A stretch of 64,000 bases of DNA, from positions 36,826 to 100,825 of the forward strand of contig WGNA01000004.1 in NCBI GenBank assembly GCA_016124755.1. Direction: 5' to 3'. The notes under the pieces were generated by a model. That model saw nothing but the letters and a program-made list of their open reading frames with translations, was not told the DNA's origin and made no database searches. The position numbers and the translations under genes are program-made. The DNA is from Bacteroidota bacterium (lineage in GTDB: Bacteria > Bacteroidota > Bacteroidia > NS11-12g > UBA9320). Numbering within the stretch: the first letter of the stretch is position 1; each line of letters begins with the position of its first letter. This document shows, piece after piece, positions 31,926 to 56,525 of the stretch.

Positions 31926-32675
31926 CTATGATTTAACAAATCTAAGAGTTTGAAAAGTCGAATCCGACCAGATCTTAAGTATAAAAATTCCTTTATTCAA
32001 AGACGAAACATCAATTGAATTATTTTTCTCGTCCAGCACACAGGTTAATAACAACTTTCCATTCAAATCGTAAGTCTCACAAATGGATGATCCGATTCGG
32101 GTAGATTCAAAATCAATATGAAGTGTGTTTATCACCGGATTTGGATAAACCTTCAAAATCTCTGAAATTTCTAAAGAATGGATTGAAACATATTTATGCG
32201 AGCCTATTATACAGCAGGTATTATTGAAGTAAAGACTTACTGAATCTGTTTCATCAAAAAGTGGTAAAAGGTTTGGCGGAGCATTTGGTGGCGGAGGAGT
32301 AAAAGAGTAAAACTCCTGAACACAGAATTTAACATTGTCTACATCGTTTGTTCCCTTCATTTTAAATACAATCGATGTTTTCAAACTATCTCCGGGATTT
32401 AGTTGTCTTGAATAGGGCCTCACAACAGGCAACATGCGCCAACCACCAAAATTTAGAGTTATTGAATACATATCGTTTGGGGAAATTGTATCCAGACCAA
32501 GATTTTTTATTCTAAGAATACAACTGTCGAAACCCGGACTGGTGAAAATATGATTACTTGCCGGACTATCAATGGAAATTGCCATATCGCAAAAACGATG
32601 GTTTTGACAAGAGGCTGAATTAGTCAAACCGAAAAATATACAAAACAATAAGCCAATCCCAATTTGATTCTTCAT
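31926..32675 (-). CDS. T9SS C-terminal-domain secreted protein
   Basis: Signal peptide plus CTD (KVYPNPVINTLHIDF...GIFILKIWSDSTFQTLRFVKS). Confidence 0.6.
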   Translation of the reverse strand: MKNQIGIGLLFCIFFGLTNSASCQNHRFCDMAISIDSPASNHIFTSPGFDSCILRIKNLGLDTISPNDMYSITLNFGGWRMLPVVRPYSRQLNPGDSLKTSIVFKMKGTNDVDNVKFCVQEFYSFTPPPPNAPPNLLPLFDETDSVSLYFNNTCCIIGSHKYVSIHSLEISEILKVYPNPVINTLHIDFESTRIGSSICETYDLNGKLLLTCVLDEKNNSIDVSSLNKGIFILKIWSDSTFQTLRFVKS

Positions 32676-32681
32676 AGGTTG

Positions 32682-33458
32682 TTAGTTGGTTACAACAAAT
32701 GTATTTTGAAATCTCAAACCGTTAAGTTCGGTGATTAGATAATAGACACCTGGCAACAGATTGTTAACCGGAACAACAAAGTTCTGATCGCTGCCTGAAA
32801 CATTTGTAACCGTGATGATTTGATCATTTACAGAATATAATTTAAAGGACGGAATTACATTGGGATCGACATTCTGAAGATGGATATTAAGACCATCAGA
32901 ACCACTGGAAAGCATATTGGGATTTAGTGAAACAGAAGGCAGAAATGGAAGTTTTAATTTATCAACTGAACTTGAATAATTGTGTCTCAGCAAAATATAG
33001 TAGGGGTACATCTGGCTACTATCAATCGTTGCTCTTATAACCGGGCTCCCATTATTTCTATCGCAGGTAAAGTATGAACACAAAAGGAACAATTTAAAAT
33101 GATATGTATGATGATCGTTGGTCCAATTAACACCTATGGAATCCGAAAACACCTCTGAAGAATCTCCGGGTATAATTGTTTTTCCAACTTTAACTCTTCC
33201 AATTACTTCCTTATAAGGTCCCAGAATTTCATGTGAAATAATATACGTGAAGGAGTCTGTGGAATAAATTGTATCCTTTCCATAATTGTAGAAACGAAAT
33301 GAAACAGGAATCTGAGCTGGAGAAACAAAAAGGTCTTCTGGTTTTGGATTAATGAACCTGTAACCAATGTTAACCTGTCTTATTTGACCAAGAGCGGAAC
33401 ATATAAAACCTTCTGCAAAACATAACAAAATAAAAATTCTTAAAATAATGTGTTTCAT
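32682..33458 (-). CDS. T9SS C-terminal-domain secreted protein (tandem paralog-like)
   Basis: Signal peptide plus CTD-like tail (ITVTNVSGSDQNF...PGVYYLITELNGLRFQNTFVVTN). Confidence 0.55.
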   Translation of the reverse strand: MKHIILRIFILLCFAEGFICSALGQIRQVNIGYRFINPKPEDLFVSPAQIPVSFRFYNYGKDTIYSTDSFTYIISHEILGPYKEVIGRVKVGKTIIPGDSSEVFSDSIGVNWTNDHHTYHFKLFLLCSYFTCDRNNGSPVIRATIDSSQMYPYYILLRHNYSSSVDKLKLPFLPSVSLNPNMLSSGSDGLNIHLQNVDPNVIPSFKLYSVNDQIITVTNVSGSDQNFVVPVNNLLPGVYYLITELNGLRFQNTFVVTN

Positions 33459-33775
33459 TCGATTAATTGGAGTCTTCTAAGATACGTTGGTGAATGTGGT
33501 TTATTACATCAATATTCTAACTCAGACATTGAAATGCGTTTTTGCTGAAAAATTATATGCCCATCATAGAATAGAGGCTGGCAGGAGAAAATTCTTCGGG
33601 GTATATCACGCCCGCAACCTATAAGCTAAAGCCCCAAAGATTAGTATTCGAAAACGTATGATTTAGAGAGTGCCAAAAAACGGATCGGCATCAGAATAAC
33701 ATGAAGTCACTTATTCCCAAAACATAAAAAGGCCACCTCTTTCGAAGCAGCCTTGGGGCAGGGCAAAAGATGGGT

Positions 33776-34201
33776 TTAGCGTTTATAATTATAATTGAAC
33801 TTTTTACCGTTGGTCTCGAATTCTGTTTTTAGATCCGTTTCCGTGAGCGAAGTGATGTTCATTAAAACCGGATTACTTGTGCCGGTAAACGTGAGTGCAT
33901 ACTGACTTGAATCAGAGCCGGTGAATGCATAATTTCCTACCACTTCCCAGTTGCCGTTGCTTAGAAAAAAGAAAACTCCATCCTCGCTGTAAAGGTATTG
34001 TCCGGTACCATTACTCGTTTTTAAAGCTCCGTTTTCATACGTTTCATCAAGAGTCCAGGTTTGTGCGAATTTTTCGATCGTAGACATTTCAGCCGGAGGA
34101 TTGTTCGTGTCGGTTGTAGTTTTTTTAACCGGTGTTTCGTCTTTGCAGGAAACCAGAATCAATAAAATTCCCGCAAGAAATAATGTGTAAGATTTAGTCA
34201 T
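33776..34201 (-). CDS. lipocalin-like lipoprotein
   Basis: Lipobox LILVSC after the internal Met MTKSYTLFLAGILL. Size is about 140 aa with a Thr/Gly-rich beta-type composition. Confidence 0.45.
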   Translation of the reverse strand: MTKSYTLFLAGILLILVSCKDETPVKKTTTDTNNPPAEMSTIEKFAQTWTLDETYENGALKTSNGTGQYLYSEDGVFFFLSNGNWEVVGNYAFTGSDSSQYALTFTGTSNPVLMNITSLTETDLKTEFETNGKKFNYNYKR

Positions 34202-34337
34202 AATGATAATTGTCTTTTGAACTAAAGAGCTTTTCAATGCGAATTGTGTGGTATGTTTAAACCGGCATTTGACGAGACTTGTGACGACTGATAAACTGAT
34301 TGTGACCAACAACCCGAAACCGGTGACTAACGACGAA

Positions 34338-35042
34338 TTATTTTTCGCTTAACAGTTTGAGCACTTTTTCCCGATACGTTCGTCCGATCGGAAGTTGCCC
34401 CGAATTTTTAAGATTTACGGTAGTTGCTGCCAACGATTCTATTTGGCGGGTATTGATGAGATAAGATTTATGAATGGGTAAAAACAACGGTTCCGGGAGC
34501 ATTTTTAAAACGGCTTTTAAGGCATACCGAACAATTAACGTTTTATCATTTTTTAGATGAAGCCTTGAATAATTCTGCATTCCGGAGATGTAAATAATGT
34601 CTTCAAAATTTACCTTCCGATGTTTGCCATCGCTTTTCAGAAACAAGAAATCCCGAACGGTTGATTTGTCATTTATTGTCTGGAATTCTTTTAATGCCTT
34701 GTTCGCCGCATCGTAAAAACGCCCAAACGAAACCGGTTTTAAGAGATAATCAACCGCATTTACCTCGTAACTTTCTAAAGCAAATTCCTGATACGCCGTG
34801 ATGAAAATTACCATAGGAAAATTGATCAGCTCTGATTTTAAAATCTCCATTCCGGAAGTTCCCGGCATCTCGATATCCATAAAAATCAAATCGATATTTC
34901 CTTGTTTTAAGCATTCCATCATTTCATCGGTGTTTGATGAAAATCCCATAAAATCCAAAAAAGAAATTTTGTCGATAAATGTCTTAATCCCTTTGCGGGC
35001 AATGGGTTCGTCGTCAACCACAAGACATCTTATCTTATGCAT
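34338..35042 (-). CDS. LytTR-family response regulator
   Basis: Receiver domain (VVDDEP, DLIFMDIEMPG, K near position 104) plus a C-terminal LytTR DNA-binding domain. It overlaps the upstream HK gene by 8 nt. Confidence 0.85.
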   Translation of the reverse strand: MHKIRCLVVDDEPIARKGIKTFIDKISFLDFMGFSSNTDEMMECLKQGNIDLIFMDIEMPGTSGMEILKSELINFPMVIFITAYQEFALESYEVNAVDYLLKPVSFGRFYDAANKALKEFQTINDKSTVRDFLFLKSDGKHRKVNFEDIIYISGMQNYSRLHLKNDKTLIVRYALKAVLKMLPEPLFLPIHKSYLINTRQIESLAATTVNLKNSGQLPIGRTYREKVLKLLSEK

Positions 35043-36081
35043 CTGTATTTATTTTAATGCGAATGGAAGTTGAATAAACGTCGTTAATTCTCCCGTGTTT
35101 TAAAGACGCATCATCACCGTAAATTAGTTGCAAACGTTTTCGGAGATTTGATAATCCCAAACCTCCGGAGGATTTGTCGGAAAAGGTTTTTTCTCCGCAA
35201 TTATTTTGAACTTTATAAATCAGATGCCCGTCTTCGCTTTTTAAGTTGATTCGAATAAAACCATCAGCATCGCCCGGTGAATACTTAAAGGCATTTTCTA
35301 CAGGAATAATTAACAGCATCGGCGCGATCTTGAGGTCAGGGAAATCCTCAAATTGACTTTCTATTCGAAAACCAACTTCTTTTCGCACCTGCTGAATGCG
35401 GATGTATTTTTTGAGATATTCAATTTCGGAACGTACCGAAACCCTGTCTTGAGAACCTTCATATAGCTGATACCTCAGAATTTCAGAAAAATCGTGAATG
35501 AGTTTTCGGGCGGTTGCATTTTGTTCATCAATGGAGAAATGAATGTTGTTGAGTGTGTTAAAAATGAAATGCGGATTAATCTGCGCTTTCAGAAATTTGA
35601 GTTCGGTTGCAATCTGCTCCTTTTCCAATTCCTCTTTTTGTCTTTTGGCAAGCAATAATTTTTCGCGATACGAAGCCACGGTAAAACCAATTAATCCGAA
35701 TGCGACAACAAGATAGCTGTCGAAAATCTGGTAACTTAAAGTGTCGAATATGGACAAGAAATGTTCGTTCATCGCACCCGTAGTCATATAAATCAAACGA
35801 TGAAATTCTTTTAGAACAAACACGCCCGATACAAACAACAGCGCACCGGATGATGCCCAAAGGAAGTTTTTAATCCACTGTTTTTGGAGTAAAGTAATCC
35901 TGATTTGTGCGCGCTGATACGTTATAAAAATCAGCGAACAAACCAGAATATCGGAAATCGAATTGAAAATAATCTGAAGGATCTGCATTACCTCGAAATC
36001 CGTTCGGAACGCAAACCGATACGTAATAAAAATGATGAACAGAAGTAAACCGGTTTTAAGACCGCGACGAAATGATTGCAT
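35035..36081 (-). CDS. LytS/YehU-type sensor histidine kinase
   Basis: N-terminal TM helices, His_kinase motif FLKAQINPHFIFNTLNNIHF, and HATPase G-boxes (SGGLGLSNL). Confidence 0.8.
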   Translation of the reverse strand: MQSFRRGLKTGLLLFIIFITYRFAFRTDFEVMQILQIIFNSISDILVCSLIFITYQRAQIRITLLQKQWIKNFLWASSGALLFVSGVFVLKEFHRLIYMTTGAMNEHFLSIFDTLSYQIFDSYLVVAFGLIGFTVASYREKLLLAKRQKEELEKEQIATELKFLKAQINPHFIFNTLNNIHFSIDEQNATARKLIHDFSEILRYQLYEGSQDRVSVRSEIEYLKKYIRIQQVRKEVGFRIESQFEDFPDLKIAPMLLIIPVENAFKYSPGDADGFIRINLKSEDGHLIYKVQNNCGEKTFSDKSSGGLGLSNLRKRLQLIYGDDASLKHGRINDVYSTSIRIKINTDA

Positions 36082-36248
36082 TGATTACAAATCTATTCAT
36101 CCGTTTTTGAACCTGACCGACGAGTCAAATCGTTGGTCAGCGGATTTAAGTCGTTGGTCACATAAAGCTCAATTCCAATAATCGAATTTGTGAAATATTT
36201 ATCGTCGGAATTGAGCCATATTGATTTATTGGAAAGTCCGGATAATTT

Positions 36249-37091
36249 TTATCGATGATTGCCAGCAAGAATTAATTTATTCAAGACGTCTCTTATTTCA
36301 TTTTTAATCACTTCGTTGGTTCCTCTTATGTATCCATGATGTGTATACACTATGTCACCGTTGGAGGCACAGATTACTACACTTGGATAAGACCGCACAC
36401 CCAAATTTTTACTGAACTCAGGCGAGAGAGCTATTTGAGGGCAGAAATCTGTTTTAAATTGTATCGCCTCGTTCCAGGTGTCTTCCGGGTTTAGTGCCAG
36501 AAATCCAACCGAAGATTGGTACTCCTCGCAAAGTTCATTGAGTACTTCGTCTATCTCCAATTTACAATAAGCACAGTTTTTTGTCCAGGAAATTAAAACA
36601 AACGGCTTATTTAATAAGGTTGAAAGCACAATAGAGGAGTCAGTATTCGTCTGTATCCGCTGATCCTCAAGGTTACCAAGAATTAGTTTATTCTTACCCT
36701 TGTTGGATAAATAAAAAGGCAAATAAAGATTTAAAACTATGGATAGGCCAATTCCAGAACTGATGAATAATATTTTTCCTCTGGTACTAACCTGAGGGAC
36801 TAAAACCCCAATCAACGAAAAAACAAAAACGGATAAACCAATATACCAAAGTTGCAATCTCACGGAAAGGACAAAAACCAGGAAGGCCAATGGAAAAAGC
36901 GCATACGCGATTTTATCGGAAGTGTATAGTTCTCCCACCAACCATTTGGTGATAAATCCGAATAAAATAGAGAAAATAAAGAAGGCGATTATAATATTTC
37001 CCTCGGAAGTCTGCCACATCAGGAAGGCGTCATTGCCAATCAAACAAACCAGTCCTAATAAAGATATTTGTGTAAATCGACGGTAGTTCAT
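36249..37091 (-). CDS. membrane-anchored thioredoxin-fold (TlpA/ResA-like) thiol-disulfide oxidoreductase
   Basis: About 4 N-terminal TM helices followed by a thioredoxin-like domain with a CxxC site (SWTKNCAYCK). Confidence 0.55.
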   Translation of the reverse strand: MNYRRFTQISLLGLVCLIGNDAFLMWQTSEGNIIIAFFIFSILFGFITKWLVGELYTSDKIAYALFPLAFLVFVLSVRLQLWYIGLSVFVFSLIGVLVPQVSTRGKILFISSGIGLSIVLNLYLPFYLSNKGKNKLILGNLEDQRIQTNTDSSIVLSTLLNKPFVLISWTKNCAYCKLEIDEVLNELCEEYQSSVGFLALNPEDTWNEAIQFKTDFCPQIALSPEFSKNLGVRSYPSVVICASNGDIVYTHHGYIRGTNEVIKNEIRDVLNKLILAGNHR

Positions 37092-37099
37092 ATTTGTTC

Positions 37100-37768
37100 T
37101 TAATCAATTCCTTGATCCGGATTCGGGTTTAAGGCATCATGTTCGCACATCCCATCACACGGCCAAATGGCCATAAATCCGCATCCCATACTTGAACCAT
37201 CGCATTGCGATTGGGCACAATAGGAACCGAAAAATTGGCAGGCCCCAAACACAGAACCGCGATTACAACCACATGGAGGAGCATTATTCCCACCAGAACC
37301 GTTGCCTCCATTTATAATGTAAGGATCTTGATTATCTAAGTCGTACAAGTTTAAAAAAATAGCAGTACCCAGAACATTACCGATAATGTCTTTATTCGAG
37401 TTGAACCAACTTACCGCAGTATAGAGCCGGAATGAATCAGATTCTGAGCTTGTCCAATCAAATATTTTGGTATTTAAAAGTGGAAGTAAAGAATTGATGG
37501 AATTTTTAACCGAGTCTGCTACCAAATTGCTATTAAGGCAATGGTTCATCTTGTCAATCCATAGTGCATATCTACCTTCCGGAGTTAGATTTCGCAATTC
37601 ATTCCGCACTTCCTCCATGGACATGTTCTGTAAATAAGTGCGACTTGCAGGAGTAACCGATTCATTAGAAAATCCCAAAATATTAGCAGGACCTTCCTCC
37701 CTTTTTTCACTTTCAGAGCAAGCCATGAGCAGGGTAAAAATAGCAAGAGATAAAATTAATTTTTTCAT
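37100..37768 (-). CDS. lipoprotein with Gly/Asn-rich linker and C-terminal 8-cysteine module
   Basis: Lipobox LLMACS, linker INGGNGSGGNNAPP, then CGCNRGSVFGACQFFGSYCAQSQCDGSSMGCGFMAIWPCDGMCEHD. It lies 8 nt upstream of the thioredoxin-fold gene. Confidence 0.6.
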   Translation of the reverse strand: MKKLILSLAIFTLLMACSESEKREEGPANILGFSNESVTPASRTYLQNMSMEEVRNELRNLTPEGRYALWIDKMNHCLNSNLVADSVKNSINSLLPLLNTKIFDWTSSESDSFRLYTAVSWFNSNKDIIGNVLGTAIFLNLYDLDNQDPYIINGGNGSGGNNAPPCGCNRGSVFGACQFFGSYCAQSQCDGSSMGCGFMAIWPCDGMCEHDALNPNPDQGID

Positions 37769-38153
37769 GTTAAATTTTTTTTGATAAAGAAAGATCGTTC
37801 ATCTCCTTTATTAATCATTTACCTGTTTGGAAAAAACTCAACGCCGTATTTTTTATACTGAACGCCGTCTTGAGATCAAAACTTTAACATTGATGATGCT
37901 GTATTCACCATCCCTGAATGTAACTTTAGCATTTACAAAAAAAAAGGTTCTTAGTAATACGTGATTTTAACTAAGCACTCTTGTTGTTGGTGTTATCAAC
38001 ACAAAACCGGACAATTGAACTCCGACCTGATTGCATAAGGAAATCAAACTTATTGGAATAGCTGGAGGTGATAACACCTTACGCGGGAACGTTAGCGATT
38101 AATTTACTCTTCTTGGGAATAAATTAAACATAGCTGCATTAGGACATATCAAC

Positions 38154-40817
38154 TCAATTCGAACTCACTACATTCGGGATATCGCCTTTGCCAATATTGA
38201 GATCTTCGCTCGCTTCTTCTTCTTTAAATTCCATCACGAGTTTCAGTGCATCCGGAACCACATCGCTGCACAAAACAATCAGGCTGCCTTCGGTTGCATT
38301 GCGGATGGCGTATGTAATTGCTTCCCGTTCGCTTGGAATGATATTGATCTTTTTATTCGGATCCACATCGATGATTCCGGCTTTTAACATGGCAATTAAT
38401 TCCTCTTCTGTTTTGCCACGCAGATTTTTATCCTGACGAATAATTACCTCATCAAACATTCGCGCGGCAATGCGTCCCATTTCGTTATTGTCTTCTTCGC
38501 GACGGTCACCGATTCCTGCAATGATCCCGACTTTCGGATGGCCTTCCATCTTATCGACAAACTGTTGAAGCGCTCTCATACCAGCCGGATTGTGCGCATA
38601 ATCGAGCAAAACAGTGAACTTTTTAAACCGGAACAAATTCAATCTTCCGGGAGTTTGTGATGCTGACGGAATAAAGGATTCGAGAGCAGCCCGGATATCA
38701 TGAAGTGAAAATCCACGAACGTACGCCGCCAACACAGCGGGCAAAACATTCTGAATCATAAACACAGCTTTGCCTTCGTAGGTGATCGGGATGTTCACCA
38801 CTTTGGAAACCCGCATCTTCCATTCACCTTTACAAATCGTAACATATCCGTTTTCATATATCGCCGAAAGTCCGCCGACCTTCATCATGGATTTGATATG
38901 CGGATTATTTTCGTCTAATGAGAACAGCGCAACATTGCACTGAACGTTCTTTCTCATCGCATACACCAGTTCGTCGTCGGCATTGAGAATGGCATAACCA
39001 TCGGGCAAAACAGTTTCTGGAATTACCCCTTTCACCCGTGCTAATTGTTCGATGGTCTGAATACCTTTTAAGCCGAGATGATCTGCTGCCACATTGGTTA
39101 CAATGCCGACATCGCAGTGATGAAAACCAAGTCCGGCGCGCAATAAACCCCCGCGCGCGCATTCAAGTACCGCGAAATCAACGGTCGGATCTTTTAGCAC
39201 AAATTCGGCACTTGCAGGTCCGGTGCAATCGCCACTCATCATCAATTGATTCTGTATATATACACCATCGCTGGTTGTGTAACCGACACGATATCCTTTT
39301 AGTCGTGCCATGTGAGCAATGAGTCTCGACGTGGTTGTTTTTCCATTGGTTCCGGTAATGGCAACAATGGGAATCCGGGCATTGGAGCCTGCCGGAAACA
39401 ACATGTCGATCACGTTGCCGGCGACATTTCTCGGCAAACCGGAAGTGGGAGCGAGGTGCATCCGGAAACCGGGACCGGCATTCACTTCGAGAACAGCTCC
39501 TCCTGTAACTTTCAGTGGTTCTGAAATATTGGTTGTTGAAATATCGATTCCACAGATGTCGAGGTCGATGATTTTGGAAATACGTTCGGCCATAAAGGCA
39601 ATGCTCGGATGCACAAAGTCGGTAACATCTTCAGCGGTTCCACCGGTGCTGAGGTTCGCCGTGTCTTTCAGATACAGAATTCTGCCTTCTTCTAAAACGT
39701 CATTCAGCGTAACACCCGCAGCTTTCAGCAGATTTTCGGTGAGTTCGTTTACTGTGATCATGGTCAGTACTTTCTCGTGACCGTAACCGCGTCGCGGATC
39801 GCTGTTCACTTTATCGATTAATTGCTGAACCGTTGATTTTCCGTCGCCGACAACATTTGCCGGAGTTCGTTTGGCAGCCGCAACTAATTTGTTGTCGATA
39901 ACTAAAAGACGGTAATCATCTCCTTTAATATAGCGTTCGACCATTACACTGTTCGACACCTTTTTTGCCGCTTCGAAACCTTTCAGTGCTTCTTCCATGG
40001 AGCGGATATTCACGGTGATTCCTCTTCCGTGATTTCCGTCGAGCGGTTTGGTAACTACCGGAAATCCGAGGGATTCCACCACTTCCTTCAATCCTCTTTC
40101 TGTGCGGATTAATTCGCCTCTTGGAACGGGAACTTCCGCCTGATCCAATAAGTATTTTGTATCTTCTTTATCGCAGGCAATCTCAACTCCGATGCTGCTC
40201 GTCTGACTGGTTACAGTTGCCTGAATGCGTTTCTGATTGGCTCCGTATCCCAATTGACAAAGTGAATATTTATTGAGCCGGATCCAGGGAATTCCGCGAC
40301 TTGCCGCTTCTTCGACAATACTGGCAGTTGACGGTCCGAGTCTTTCAGCTTCGCGGATTTCCCGCATTTCCTGAATGTCGGCCGCCAAATCATATTCGGT
40401 TCCTTTTATTAATGCTTCACAAATTCTAACAGAAGATTGGGCCGCAAATCTTCCAACTTTTTGTTCTTCGTAAGCAAACACAACATGATAAACTCCGTGT
40501 TCTCCATAACCGCGGGTTCTTCCAAAACCAACGTCCATTCCTGCGAGTGTCTGAATTTCCAAAGCGATATGTTCGATCACATGGCCCATCCAGGTTCCTT
40601 CTTTAACGCGTTTGAAAAAACCACCGGGTTCACCTTCACTACAGCGGTGTTCGTACATCGAAGGGAACATCGCAACGAGCCGGTCATAAAAACCATCCAC
40701 CTTATCTGAAGGATAATCTTCCATTTCTTCGAGGTCGAGAGTCATTACGATTAACTTGTGTCTTCTCACAGACCAGTAATTTGGTCCGTTCATTACGTTT
40801 ATTTCCCGGATGCGCAT
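38154..40817 (-). CDS. cphA: cyanophycin synthetase
   Basis: Characteristic N-terminus MRIREINVMNGPNYWS, an ATP-grasp region, a Mur-ligase-like domain (GTNGKTTT), and a length of 887 aa. Confidence 0.9.
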   Translation of the reverse strand: MRIREINVMNGPNYWSVRRHKLIVMTLDLEEMEDYPSDKVDGFYDRLVAMFPSMYEHRCSEGEPGGFFKRVKEGTWMGHVIEHIALEIQTLAGMDVGFGRTRGYGEHGVYHVVFAYEEQKVGRFAAQSSVRICEALIKGTEYDLAADIQEMREIREAERLGPSTASIVEEAASRGIPWIRLNKYSLCQLGYGANQKRIQATVTSQTSSIGVEIACDKEDTKYLLDQAEVPVPRGELIRTERGLKEVVESLGFPVVTKPLDGNHGRGITVNIRSMEEALKGFEAAKKVSNSVMVERYIKGDDYRLLVIDNKLVAAAKRTPANVVGDGKSTVQQLIDKVNSDPRRGYGHEKVLTMITVNELTENLLKAAGVTLNDVLEEGRILYLKDTANLSTGGTAEDVTDFVHPSIAFMAERISKIIDLDICGIDISTTNISEPLKVTGGAVLEVNAGPGFRMHLAPTSGLPRNVAGNVIDMLFPAGSNARIPIVAITGTNGKTTTSRLIAHMARLKGYRVGYTTSDGVYIQNQLMMSGDCTGPASAEFVLKDPTVDFAVLECARGGLLRAGLGFHHCDVGIVTNVAADHLGLKGIQTIEQLARVKGVIPETVLPDGYAILNADDELVYAMRKNVQCNVALFSLDENNPHIKSMMKVGGLSAIYENGYVTICKGEWKMRVSKVVNIPITYEGKAVFMIQNVLPAVLAAYVRGFSLHDIRAALESFIPSASQTPGRLNLFRFKKFTVLLDYAHNPAGMRALQQFVDKMEGHPKVGIIAGIGDRREEDNNEMGRIAARMFDEVIIRQDKNLRGKTEEELIAMLKAGIIDVDPNKKINIIPSEREAITYAIRNATEGSLIVLCSDVVPDALKLVMEFKEEEASEDLNIGKGDIPNVVSSN

Positions 40818-40895
40818 AGACGATAAAATTGAATTGTACCTTTGAAGCCGGTAATTTAATCAAATTATCCGCTGATTATTAGCGCAAAAGATTGT

Positions 40896-41768
40896 ATGAC
40901 GGATCGCACAAAAAGAGGGAAATTAATACCGATTGGAGGGAACGAAGACAAAGGGGCAGGAACGGATGAGAACTATACATTGGATTTTGTACAGCAGGGA
41001 ATTCTCTCGCATGTGGTTCGAGAAAGCGGTGGAGTAGATGCAAAAATTCTTGTGGTTCCAACCGCTTCCAGTATACCGGAAGAAGTTGGAGAAAATTATC
41101 AGGAAGCATTTGCAATTCTGGGTTGCAGCGATGTTCGTGTAATTCATATTCGAAAAAAAGGAGAATCGGATCAACCGGAATTTCTTCACTTGTTGCAGGA
41201 AGCAGATTGTGTGATGTTCACCGGTGGGGATCAATCCCGAATTTCCCGGCGAATCGGAGGTTCCGAATTTTTCAGAATCATGTTAGACCGGCACCTGAAC
41301 GACGAGCTTAATATAGCCGGAACCAGTGCAGGAGCAATGGCGATGGCTCTTGAAATGATTGCCGGAGGAAGCAGTACCGAAGCGTTTTTTAAAGGTGCGG
41401 TACAAATGAAAAAAGGACTCGGTCTTCTTCCCAAACTCATTATTGATACGCACTTTATTCAACGCGGTAGATTCGGAAGATTAACTGAAGCAGTTGCCCG
41501 TCACCCGCATTGTTTGGGATTCGGATTGGCCGAAGATACCGGACTTATAATTAAGGAAGGCCGATACGCCAAAGTGATCGGTTCCGGGATGGTGATTGTG
41601 ATCGACCCATCCGGAATTACGCACAACAACGATAAAATTCTCAAAGACGGAACACCAATGACCCTGATAGGTCTGAACACGCATATTCTGTCGAACGGTG
41701 ATACGATCGACCTTGAAACAAGAGCAGCCAAAGCACTCCCGATGCACGATAAATTTGAATGGGCTTAG
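40896..41768 (+). CDS. cphB: cyanophycinase (peptidase S51)
   Basis: IPIGGNEDK N-terminal block and S51 fold in 290 aa. The gene is divergent from cphA. Confidence 0.85.
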   Translation: MTDRTKRGKLIPIGGNEDKGAGTDENYTLDFVQQGILSHVVRESGGVDAKILVVPTASSIPEEVGENYQEAFAILGCSDVRVIHIRKKGESDQPEFLHLLQEADCVMFTGGDQSRISRRIGGSEFFRIMLDRHLNDELNIAGTSAGAMAMALEMIAGGSSTEAFFKGAVQMKKGLGLLPKLIIDTHFIQRGRFGRLTEAVARHPHCLGFGLAEDTGLIIKEGRYAKVIGSGMVIVIDPSGITHNNDKILKDGTPMTLIGLNTHILSNGDTIDLETRAAKALPMHDKFEWA

Positions 41769-42704
41769 TTAAATCCAGTCTTCGTAGATCGCAACCTTCG
41801 ATTCTGATGAAGTTCGGTAAGCTCGATACATTCCTTCCGTATTAAAAGGAAGAGAAACATTTCCGTTCGCATCAACAGCGACCAGACCACCATCTCCTTC
41901 AATTTTAATCAGTCTCTTATTAATTACTAATTCGGAAGCTTCGGCTAAAGACAATCCTCCGAACTCCATTGCAGCTGAGACATCATACGCAACGACTCCC
42001 CGTATAAAATATTCACCGCTTCCGGTGCAGGAAACAGCGCAGGTATTGTTGTTGGCATACGTTCCGGCTCCAATAATTGGTGAGTCTCCGATGCGACCGA
42101 ATTTCTTGTTGGTCATGCCGCCGGTTGAAGTTGCGGCAGCCAGATTTCCGTTTAAATCGAGGGCTACGGCACCAACAGTTCCGAACTTTCCTTCGGGATT
42201 GATGCTGTGGTCTAATTGAACAACATCCGATTCACGGGCTTTCTGCCATTGGTTGTAGCGGAGTTCATTATAAAAGTAGGAGGGAGGAAGAAACTCGTAA
42301 CCCTGAGATCTCGCGAATTCCATTGCACCTTCCCCGGCGAGTATTACATGACCTGATTTCTCCATCACATCCCGGGCAAGTTGAACCGGATTCCGGATTC
42401 CGGTAACCATAGAAACGGCTCCGGCATTTCTGGATTTGCCTTCCATAATAGAAGCATCCATTTCATGCGTTCCGTTCGCTGTGAAAACACTGCCTTTTCC
42501 GGCGTTAAAGAGAGGAGAGTCTTCCAGAATTTTTACGCATTCAATTACAGCATCCAATGCAGAGCCACCGCTTTCAACGATGTAAAAGGCAGTGTCTCTT
42601 GCCTCAGATAAGGTAAGAATGTATTTCTCCTCTTCAGCTTTCGGGAGAAAGCCGCGTCGAAGAGTACCGGCGCCACCATGCAATGCAACAGCGACGGACT
42701 TCAT
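41769..42704 (-). CDS. iaaA: isoaspartyl dipeptidase / plant-type L-asparaginase (Ntn hydrolase)
   Basis: ALHGGAGT N-terminus and autoproteolytic nucleophile site GTVGAVALD, followed by a GAGT.. block. Confidence 0.85.
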   Translation of the reverse strand: MKSVAVALHGGAGTLRRGFLPKAEEEKYILTLSEARDTAFYIVESGGSALDAVIECVKILEDSPLFNAGKGSVFTANGTHEMDASIMEGKSRNAGAVSMVTGIRNPVQLARDVMEKSGHVILAGEGAMEFARSQGYEFLPPSYFYNELRYNQWQKARESDVVQLDHSINPEGKFGTVGAVALDLNGNLAAATSTGGMTNKKFGRIGDSPIIGAGTYANNNTCAVSCTGSGEYFIRGVVAYDVSAAMEFGGLSLAEASELVINKRLIKIEGDGGLVAVDANGNVSLPFNTEGMYRAYRTSSESKVAIYEDWI

Positions 42705-43059: not shown

Positions 43060-43125
43060 AATTTAAATATTTGTTGACCGAGGCGTCCGTTAAAGGTTCT
43101 TAAGCCAGGCCAAGGTTAATGTTAT

Positions 43126-43271
43126 TTACGATTTACGATTTACGATTTACGAAGTACGAAGTACGATTGACGATGTGCGATCGACGATTTGCGAAGTGAG
43201 AATGGTCTGATGTCCGGGTTTCACTTTTCGCTTTCCGATCTTCGCTTTTCAATTTTCGCTTTTCGTTTTTC
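43126..43271. repeat. low-complexity tandem repeat spacer between rpmI and rplT (ACGATTT/ACGAAGT heptamers, then TTTTCGCTTTTC units)
   Basis: tacgatttacgatttacgatttacgaagtacgaagtacgattgacgatgtgcgatcgacgatttgcgaagtga followed by cacttttcgctttccgatcttcgcttttcaattttcgcttttcgtttttc. Confidence 0.7.
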
Positions 43272-55237: not shown

Positions 55238-55351
55238 TACTGACGAATGCTGGAGAAACTTGATTTAACCAAATCAATTCCGTTGGCATTGTCAGTTTAA
55301 ATTGGGGAATTGGAGAATTGGGGAATTGGAGAATTGGGGAATTGGAGAATA
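55238..55351 (+). repeat. REP-like hairpin (TACTGACGAATGC ... GGCATTGTCAGT) followed by AAATTGGGGAATT and about 3 tandem GGGGAATTGGAGAATT units
   Basis: An imperfect inverted repeat at 55238-55250 and 55285-55296, and 16-bp tandem units at 55304-55351. The same hairpin-plus-AAATTGGGGAATT unit recurs at 60335-60460. Confidence 0.7.
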
Positions 55352-55821: not shown

Positions 55822-56113
55822 CTTGTTAGAATTAGTCTATAAAGGAACCCTGAATTTTACGTTTATTATAGCATTGTAAATGGGGAAAAATTTAACGCTT
55901 AAAATTTCTGACTAAGCGTACAGACCTTATTTGTGTATTTTAATTAAACGGCTTAAGCTGACAACACGGATCGCCTAATTCTTCGTCACCCAATTTAAAT
56001 GGGCTTCTTCATTTGGATAATAATTAATGATGGTAAAAGGCAGGTTTATATAGCCGAAAATTTCGATTCGAAAGAATGAGATTCTGAAACGCGTGTAGGA
56101 TGACCATCGATCG

Positions 56114-56525
56114 AACATTTACCAATTCTCCAATTCACGAATTCCCCAATTCAAAAGAGTTCCTTCACTTTGTTCAGGACGACGTTGTCTGTGCTTGTAA
56201 CAAAGGATTCTTCGTTACACTCAGAATTTCAACTAACTTCCATGGCAAAAGGTACTGCATCGAGTTCAGGATGATCTTCGAATGAACATTTACCAATTCT
56301 CCAATTCACGAATTCCCCAATTCAAAAGAGTTCCTTCACTTTGTTCAGGACGACGTTGTCTGTGCTTGTAACAAAGGATTCTTCGTGACACTCAGAATTT
56401 CAACTAACTTCCATGGCAAAAGGTACTGCATCGAGTTCAGGATGATCTTCGAATGAACATTTACCAATTCTCCAATTCACGAATTCCCCAATTTAAAAGA
56501 GTTCTTTCATTTTGATGATTAGTTG
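56114..56525. repeat. 171-bp tandem repeat, about 2.4 copies, each unit beginning with an inverted copy of the AATTGGGGAATTGGAGAATT motif
   Basis: Unit starts fall at 56114, 56285 and 56456. Copies are near-identical, with a single T/G difference between units 1 and 2. Each contains ccaattctccaattcacgaattccccaattc. Confidence 0.8.

Follow-up and report, generated by a model that had tools for sequence, protein, structure and literature searches.

This study concerns a string of genes in a 64-kb window (the whole stretch of DNA that was analysed, 64,000 nucleotides of contig WGNA01000004.1 from a Bacteroidota metagenome-assembled genome (MAG); all positions are those of the window). Five co-directional open reading frames (ORFs) lie on its minus strand at 37100-37768, 36249-37091, 35035-36081, 34338-35042 and 33776-34312. 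In the order of transcription they encode a cysteine-rich lipoprotein, a membrane protein with a thioredoxin-like CxxC domain, a LytS-type histidine kinase, a LytTR response regulator and a small lipoprotein. A first-pass annotation, made from the sequence alone, had reported these five genes together with a gap of 8 nt between the first and the second, a gap of 167 nt before the kinase gene and an 8-nt overlap of the kinase and regulator genes, and had quoted the motifs INGGNGSGGNNAPP, SWTKNCAYC and FLKAQINPHFIFNTLNNIHF; all of this is in accordance with the ORF calls and their translations. Its further proposal of one five-gene module did not hold up in the neighbourhoods of related loci, where the genes split into a conserved pair and a separate, non-conserved unit.

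The cysteine-rich lipoprotein and its family

The first gene (37100-37768, minus strand) encodes a protein of 222 aa, which we annotate from the ORF and the NCBIfam model NF033852 as a fulvocin C-related bacteriocin precursor. Residues 1-17 make up a lipoprotein signal with an LLMAC lipobox. They are followed by a helical N-domain (residues ~41-140, 37349-37648), presumed to be a pro-domain and containing the almost invariant W70, by a flexible Gly/Asn-rich linker (residues 141-165, 37274-37348), predicted to be a zone of proteolytic release, and by an 8-Cys module (residues 166-208, 37145-37273), the predicted core of a mature peptide with four disulfides. The module follows the pattern CGC-x8-C-x6-C-x4-C-x6-C-x7-C-x3-C, where the C ahead of x7 belongs to a GCG motif. 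The spacings x9 and x7 first reported behind the opening C-x-C must accordingly be read as x8 and x6, and the eight cysteines occupy the last 57 aa of the protein, not the last 45.

No Pfam model matched the 222-aa protein. NF033852, "bacteriocin fulvocin C-related protein", matched it with a score of 69.4 bits (E 6e-19; the cutoff is 35 bits), with residues 56-209 aligned on positions 3-150 of the 150 in the profile, and by this score the protein is a member of the fulvocin C-related family. An identical protein in NCBI nr, whose source is a Bacteroidetes MAG, carries the same name, hence both the family name and the naming by NCBI are already known. The first-pass annotation had left the protein unassigned, and had reckoned with a hit to some well-characterised family as the outcome that would speak against it. 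This came half true: a named family was indeed matched, but one that is hardly characterised.

Word-indexed protein searches returned essentially the query alone, whether this was the Cys-rich protein, its thioredoxin neighbour or the family profile, so we searched exhaustively with phmmer against 1.84 billion cluster representatives. This yielded 126 family representatives; nearly all of them measure 190-240 aa, with a match that covers most or all of the sequence. The family as a whole has the architecture of the window protein: the lipoprotein signal is followed by a helical domain of ~100 aa, which a Gly-rich linker joins to the 8-Cys module at the C-terminus. Exactly eight cysteines were counted within the last 70 aa in 107 of 121 representatives, and about two thirds of the 121 have a lipobox-like N-terminus. 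In an alignment of 40 sequences C166, C168, C184, C189, C196, G197, C204, G206 and C208 are invariant, and C177 is found in the window protein and most family members; the linker is variable and is Gly-rich in all members. A structure model of the protein gave a confident helical N-domain, a disordered linker (predicted local distance difference test (pLDDT) <50 at residues 153-159) and a compact Cys domain. Plasmid sequences searched by tblastn with the precursor contained no match.

From Myxococcus fulvus, fulvocin C is known in the searchable literature only as a peptide of 45 aa, purified and sequenced between 1977 and 1981 (Hirsch 1977; Tsai & Hirsch 1981, as cited in PMC8708641). In the searchable literature we found no paper on the fulvocin C gene, its precursor, maturation, immunity or neighbours. 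The window protein is like fulvocin C and the members of NF033852 in having a C-terminal 8-Cys module with the GCG motif and a score above the cutoff; in contrast to fulvocin C, it is predicted from a Bacteroidota MAG as a lipoprotein precursor of 222 aa, with putative activity. We aligned the Cys module of the family with the presumed 45-residue sequence of fulvocin C, which starts one residue before the C-x-C, and because of this alignment we place the likely processing site within the linker, where the precursor would be cleaved. The homology further suggests that the Cys-rich protein may have antibacterial activity.

Some family loci carry ORFs with the N-domain only, sometimes in tandem, or with the Cys module only, and these adjoin full-length family genes (L013:976-1440, L023:7023-7868, L110:5527-6142, L046:289-582, L123:1369-1656 and L075:1977-2192). 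Such single-domain ORFs may be genuinely split genes or pseudogenes, or may result from frameshifts in the assembly of MAGs.

In actinomycetes (Streptomyces, Streptosporangium, Fodinicola and Amycolatopsis) the fulvocin-family ORFs are ~340 aa long (L060:738-1751, L034:1107-2174, L053:6303-7310, L112:2249-3271, L083:5682-6719, L114:5277-6317 and L039:848-1738). They begin with a conserved segment of ~90 aa containing F-D-x-x-C-x-x-C; after a twin-arginine-like or transmembrane (TM) segment come the N-domain of the family and then its Cys module. In this form the Cys module would be tied to a CxxC domain a second time, apparently independently; it should be noted that the N-terminal extension might stem from simple ORF calling in high-GC DNA. 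An assignment of the actinomycete CxxC segment as a DCC/DUF393-type domain was dropped, as it found no Pfam support.

The membrane thioredoxin and its pairing with the lipoprotein

Directly downstream of the bacteriocin gene, at 36249-37091 on the minus strand, lies the gene of the 280-aa partner protein. It combines an N-terminal domain of ~5 TM helices (residues 1-135, 36687-37091) with a ResA/TlpA-like thioredoxin domain (residues ~150-280), predicted to face the periplasm, whose active site CAYC (C173 and C176, 36564-36575) stands in the context W-T-K-N-C-A-Y-C. When 26 partners were aligned, C173, C176 and the cis-Pro candidate P236 were invariant and W169 almost so. Several homologous partners pass the Pfam thresholds for Redoxin, AhpC-TSA or Thioredoxin_8, and the partner family profile matches ResA, StoA, TlpA, pneumococcal Etrx and CcmG/DsbE at E values of 1e-25 to 1e-9 (1e-25 to 1e-13 for ResA, StoA, TlpA and Etrx, with a ResA match at 3e-24). 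The thioredoxin-fold CxxC domain of the first-pass annotation is supported by these profile matches, along with weak Pfam thioredoxin-fold hits of the window protein itself.

The same annotation had counted four TM helices; that the membrane domain is multi-pass stands, while five helices are more likely than four. Hydropathy combined with the lysine/arginine bias, which is a crude method, gave five TM helices with the N-terminus inside and the thioredoxin domain outside for 19 of the 26 partners, and the predictions for the remaining ones mostly resemble the loss of one missed helix. By the same crude criteria of hydropathy and positive-inside bias the thioredoxin domain was placed outside in 21 of the 26. 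A single-sequence structure model of low confidence (pLDDT 47), used solely for counting helices, showed five helices in residues 4-135 and then a beta-alpha-beta pattern. We infer from this that the thioredoxin domain is periplasmic.

The partner is like ResA, TlpA, CcmG and StoA in its predicted thioredoxin fold, its W-x-x-x-C-x-x-C site, its cis-Pro candidate and its predicted extracytoplasmic location. Those proteins are anchored by a single TM segment or a lipid, and their role is to reduce cytochrome c, ScoI/CuA or spore proteins. The window partner differs from them in its 5-TM domain and in being paired with a bacteriocin-family gene. Since the TM domain has no conserved cysteine, it is not an electron relay of the DsbB, VKOR or CcdA type.

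To follow the neighbourhood of the family we gathered loci in two ways, by exact look-ups of the representatives and by a scan of one genome per species with the degenerate DNA pattern GCGF-x5-C-[ND]-G-x-C; the counts below are for loci among the matches listed. About half of the loci from the pattern scan were chance matches and were removed with the family hidden Markov model. A locus was taken as evaluable when it had at least 900 bp of downstream sequence, and the window itself and duplicates were left out. Among the 38 evaluable loci from Bacteroidota or unassigned metagenome, a partner with TM helices and CxxC lies directly downstream in 26, a TM-only protein in four and neither in eight; for the 12 evaluable loci from other phyla the corresponding numbers are two, none and ten. 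The adjacency of the thioredoxin gene thus recurs, and the neighbours of the Cys-rich gene do not vary freely in this respect. The partner homologues have 243-345 aa, several N-terminal TM helices and a single CxxC. On the Pfam-annotated contigs, which include the closest relatives with usable flanks, the partner adjoins the family gene in seven of eight. The four TM-only loci are all from gut Bacteroidales and encode a membrane protein of 135-147 aa, the profile of which cross-matches the TM domain of the partner.

Two further genes recur around the pair. Just upstream or downstream of it, in at least 18 loci (L092:6530-6913, L085:3813-4193, L020:2890-3282 and 15 others), lies the gene of a DUF1573 (PF07610) lipoprotein, which is ~130 aa long and has SCGC as a conserved motif, and a divergently transcribed XRE-type helix-turn-helix regulator was seen in at least 11 family loci. 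We know of no function for DUF1573. Neither the DUF1573 lipoprotein nor the XRE regulator was found within the 64-kb window. In gut Bacteroidales the pair also occurs with a protein of ~650 aa and a membrane protein resembling O-antigen ligases and tetratricopeptide repeat proteins.

The other three genes of the string behave differently. A LytS-type kinase or LytTR regulator lies near the family gene in none of the 50 evaluable loci, and here the neighbours do vary freely, against the first-pass annotation. In these 50 loci phmmer found no homologue of the window kinase, the LytTR regulator or the small lipoprotein at E values up to 0.01; on the Pfam-annotated contigs neither PF06580 nor PF04397 was present. 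The kinase/regulator pair and the small lipoprotein hence lie outside the conserved pair, as judged from the neighbourhoods. Metagenome scans with the kinase as query, and with an alignment of P0001 and P0003, gave no match. The conservation supports the Cys-rich lipoprotein and the membrane thioredoxin as a functional pair.

The reading that we favour, and hold with reasonable confidence, is that two independent units stand side by side: a two-gene cassette of a bacteriocin precursor and its disulfide maturation, and a sensor unit. The former would be made up of 36249-37768, and the latter of 33776-36081, with the LytS-type kinase and LytTR regulator under a promoter of their own and the small lipoprotein. 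In favour of this reading we count that the genes beyond the pair vary between genomes, the cassette being embedded among different flanking genes on the Pfam-annotated contigs. In the cassette as we picture it, the precursor would be exported by Sec and lipidated at Cys17. The ~5 TM helices would anchor the partner in the inner membrane and present its CxxC domain to the periplasm, where the anchored thioredoxin domain would introduce four disulfides into the 8-Cys module by oxidative folding, or rearrange them by isomerisation. The peptide or the whole lipoprotein might then be displayed at the surface, or be released by cleavage in the linker. Hence we suggest that the partner probably forms the disulfide bonds of the Cys-rich lipoprotein, the direction of its redox chemistry being here presumed oxidative.

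Among experimentally studied systems the closest parallel is found in Bacteroides, where the bacteroidetocin gene is flanked by genes for a five-TM protein, without an assigned function, and for a thiol oxidoreductase (Coyne et al. 2019, PMC6671954). Both are required for toxin activity and neither gives immunity, and its authors reason that disulfide formation falls to the oxidoreductase, as Bacteroides is without general disulfide machinery (PMC6671954). The window locus is like the bacteroidetocins (class IIf peptide toxins of Bacteroidales) in placing the gene of a Cys-containing Bacteroidota toxin, here a putative one, beside predicted five-TM and thiol oxidoreductase functions, the accessory proteins being compared by description. 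Bacteroidetocins have a 15-aa double-glycine leader, a C39-type ATP-binding cassette (ABC) exporter and mature peptides of 42 aa with four cysteines. The window locus, unlike them, has a Sec/lipoprotein signal, a pro-region of ~150 aa, eight cysteines and no adjacent ABC exporter, and its partner appears to fuse the five-TM and oxidoreductase domains in one protein. This partner may be regarded as the fused counterpart of the two separate bacteroidetocin proteins.

Other bacteriocins are also paired with a thioredoxin-family oxidoreductase. EntV of Enterococcus faecalis is secreted as a pro-protein that depends on DsbA, of the thioredoxin family, before a protease sets its C-terminal peptide free (PMC6606811), and in glycocin clusters with bdbA/bdbB, such as that of sublancin, activity needs a thiol-disulfide oxidoreductase (PMC4336743, PMC6391423). 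Unlike the window locus, EntV and the glycocins are Gram-positive and unrelated in sequence, and have one or two disulfides, no lipoprotein anchor and no TM-thioredoxin fusion.

The partner could instead be the immunity determinant, its TM domain blocking the toxin at the membrane or its CxxC domain inactivating toxin that re-enters through reduction of the disulfides. The cassette has no other immunity candidate, the thioredoxin domain falls in the ResA/TlpA/StoA/Etrx clade, whose characterised members are, as is generally known, reductants, and gut Bacteroidales keep beside the toxin gene only a homologous TM protein of 135-147 aa, which is typical of small membrane immunity proteins. On the other hand, an eight-Cys peptide has a clear need for catalysed oxidative folding, and the five-TM protein and thiol oxidoreductase of the bacteroidetocin locus gave a sensitive strain no protection and were needed for production (PMC6671954). 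We regard an immunity role as unlikely, with some small chance left to it.

As a further alternative, the first-pass annotation had likened the two proteins to the TlpA-ScoI pair, in which case the Cys-rich lipoprotein would bind metal and the thioredoxin would be its private reductase of TlpA type. The partner domain does match TlpA, some of its homologues weakly match SCO1/SenC-type profiles, and the substrate would be a Cys-rich lipoprotein. Against this, the Cys module matches the fulvocin family model NF033852, and its eight cysteines are fixed in a compact module of 43 residues with the GCG motif, without conserved His or Met ligands. Pfam, NCBIfam and PDB gave no similarity to ScoI, CopZ or other metallochaperones, and the family loci show no recurring copper or cytochrome genes among their neighbours. 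The alternative thus gained no specific support, and we consider it very improbable.

Several points weigh against the two-unit reading. For the Bacteroidota family members bacteriocin activity is a prediction, and the link to an actual bacteriocin is made through a Cys module of 45 aa that is homologous to a peptide whose presumed sequence dates from 1981. The partner is missing from 8 of the 38 Bacteroidota or unassigned metagenome loci and from 10 of the 12 of other phyla. In the window protein the Pfam thioredoxin scores are below threshold, the Thioredoxin_2 score being 24.8 bits against a gathering value of 27, and its TM domain has no conserved cysteine that could relay electrons. The likeness of this domain to the bacteroidetocin five-TM protein is one of description. 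Domains of the ResA/TlpA type are usually reductants and not oxidants, hence an isomerase or proofreading role, or immunity by reduction, is also possible. Moreover, the cassette contains no protease, exporter or immunity gene, and its bacteriocin gene is preceded by a 21-bp-spaced direct repeat whose core is CGTT (see below), so that the LytTR regulator may control it in this genome.

The neighbouring two-component unit

The kinase of 348 aa (35035-36081, minus strand) is of the LytS/YehU type (Pfam His_kinase PF06580, E 4e-25), and the response regulator of 234 aa (34338-35042, minus strand) has the Pfam domains Response_reg (PF00072) and LytTR (PF04397), as proposed by the first-pass annotation. 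The regulator further gave partial NCBIfam matches to BtsR and LytR, below the cutoffs.

Directly 3' of the thioredoxin gene, inverted repeats on the minus strand at 36162-36234 form a stable hairpin (-22.1 kcal/mol, z = -3.7 in RNA folding). The hairpin has no clear U-tract, and is likely a transcript boundary or an attenuator. Next to it, within 36114-36160, are two exact TGACCAACGA boxes on the minus strand that are 21 bp apart (36151-36160 and 36130-36139), and an inverted copy at 36114-36123. This pair is the only 12-of-13 direct repeat at a spacing of 17-23 bp in the 64-kb window. A spacing of 21 bp is typical of LytTR operators, and we consider the boxes a candidate LytTR operator of the kinase/regulator promoter. 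At 36088-36095 on the minus strand, 14 nt before the kinase start codon, TAGATTTG matches the -7 element of Bacteroidota promoters, the consensus of which is TAnnTTTG; it is one of only two motifs of this type on the same strand in 33700-38200. Because of the hairpin, the promoter-like element of its own and the direct repeats of its own, we read the kinase/regulator pair as a separate unit.

A second set of boxes, TGACCAACAA and TGACTAACGA, stands between the regulator and small lipoprotein genes (34303-34333, plus strand), again 21 bp apart and with one mismatch each to TGACCAACGA. When up to one mismatch was allowed, TGACCAACGA had ten matches in the 64 kb, five of them in the two intergenic regions upstream of the kinase and small lipoprotein genes. 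The small lipoprotein gene most likely starts at the ATG at 34201, so that its product begins with MTKSYTLFLAGILLILVSC; the same start was called independently on an identical contig. The gene then covers 33776-34201 (minus strand) and encodes 141 aa with a signal peptide, and the gap to the regulator gene is 136 nt instead of the 25 nt that follow from the start at 34312 in the first-pass annotation. The protein had no Pfam match (E up to 0.1), no NCBIfam match and no meaningful PDB sequence match, to a lipocalin-type or any other family. The label "lipocalin-like" in the first-pass annotation thus found no confirmation in these sequence searches. We infer the regulatory wiring of the locus as follows: the LytTR regulator probably regulates itself and controls the small lipoprotein through the 21-bp-spaced TGACCAACGA boxes, so that the small lipoprotein is probably a regulated target of the adjacent two-component system.

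The region upstream of the bacteriocin gene, examined with up to two mismatches allowed, contained no TGACCAACGA box. Two copies of AA[G/T]ACGGCGTT[C/G]AGT, 21 bp apart, are present there at 37836-37871 (minus strand), 68-103 nt upstream of the start codon, and are a candidate operator for a regulator. They have the CGTT core in common with the TGACCAACGA boxes and are otherwise different. Family loci with a divergent XRE gene likewise show 21-bp-spaced repeats at about -100, with other sequences. Because of these analogous repeats in the XRE-linked loci, the 21-bp architecture is not specific to LytTR regulators.

These repeats bear on the agr/com/pln-like module of the first-pass annotation, in which all five genes would form one peptide-signalling or autoinduced bacteriocin system with the LytS/LytTR pair sensing or controlling the Cys-rich peptide. 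As in agr, com and pln, a kinase and a LytTR regulator stand beside the gene of a secreted peptide, the genes adjoin and are co-oriented, and 21-bp-spaced repeats precede the kinase gene, the gene of the small lipoprotein and, in a different sequence, the bacteriocin gene. The XRE regulator of many relatives is absent from the window, so that another regulator must act. What speaks against one module is the lack of any LytS/LytTR linkage in the 50 evaluable loci, and none of the closest relatives with usable flanks carries the pair. The PF06580 domain of LytS/YehU type is the only kinase-domain match of the kinase, which is not of the AgrC/ComD/PlnB type; the HPK10 kinases of that type are a different family from those of PF06580. 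Between 31926 and 40817 there is no AgrB-like or C39-ABC gene for processing or export. It is the kinase gene and the small lipoprotein gene that have the strongest repeats in front of them, and not the Cys-rich gene, where the repeat has only the CGTT core of TGACCAACGA; repeats spaced by 21 bp at about -100 occur in the XRE-linked loci as well; and the hairpin and the separate promoter element lie between the units. We find a single module improbable, and give an equally small chance to the narrower case that the local LytTR regulator was recruited to the bacteriocin promoter.

Further, we speculate that several of these observations may be joined. The fulvocin C-related lipoproteins would be widespread lipid-anchored, disulfide-knotted toxins of Bacteroidota, including gut Bacteroidales, perhaps displayed at the surface or borne by vesicles. 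The fused five-TM/thioredoxin protein would be a self-contained device for disulfide formation in the envelope, to which the DUF1573 lipoprotein with its SCGC motif might contribute, and in the present genome the XRE regulator would have been lost and the cassette brought under the LytS/LytTR sensor. Taken as a whole this is a tentative and unlikely picture.

With the two-unit reading, the supposed five-gene signalling operon resolves into a recognisable bacteriocin cassette and an ordinary adjoining two-component unit. The fulvocin family has a constant precursor architecture and, in Bacteroidota, a constant membrane-thioredoxin neighbour, often along with the DUF1573 lipoprotein and a divergent XRE gene. 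This conserved context of membrane-thioredoxin fusion, DUF1573 lipoprotein and XRE regulator seems not to be described in the searchable literature. It offers a concrete, testable two-gene unit that is predicted to make a four-disulfide antibacterial peptide, and hints at what an unannotated membrane-thioredoxin fusion, and possibly DUF1573 as well, may do in the cell. It would also extend the observation made on bacteroidetocins that Bacteroidota toxins bring their own disulfide machinery. We see the locus as a reasonable experimental lead and not as a surprise.

Surroundings of the locus

The block at 31.5-38 kb, in which the gene string lies, has a G+C content of 35-41%, against 42-51% in the flanking housekeeping genes. 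The string ends at a terminator-like hairpin with a T-run (33729-33754, minus strand), consisting of an 11-bp stem followed by TTTATGTTTT. Past this hairpin, downstream in the same low-GC block, two adjoining paralogue-like secreted proteins of 249 and 258 aa are encoded at 31926-33458, one of them with a C-terminal sorting domain of the type IX secretion system.

Directly upstream of the string, at 38154-42704, is a complete cluster for cyanophycin metabolism, consisting of a cyanophycin synthetase (887 aa), a divergent cyanophycinase (Peptidase_S51) and an isoaspartyl peptidase (Asparaginase_2). An AT-skewed region at 43124-43271 contains adjacent heptamer tandem arrays, with ~10 copies of ATTTACG and ~7.6 copies of TTTCGCT. 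The 21-bp repeats at 43.1-43.3 kb, which had been considered as operators, are an artefact of these 7-mer arrays and were rejected. Two other repeats were seen further along the window. A 16-mer, AATTGGGGAATTGGAG, is repeated in tandem 3.2 times at 55300-55350, and ~750 bp from it, at 56097-56514, is a 171-bp tandem repeat (2.4 copies, 96% identity) that includes the reverse complement of the AATTGGGGAATTGGAG motif.

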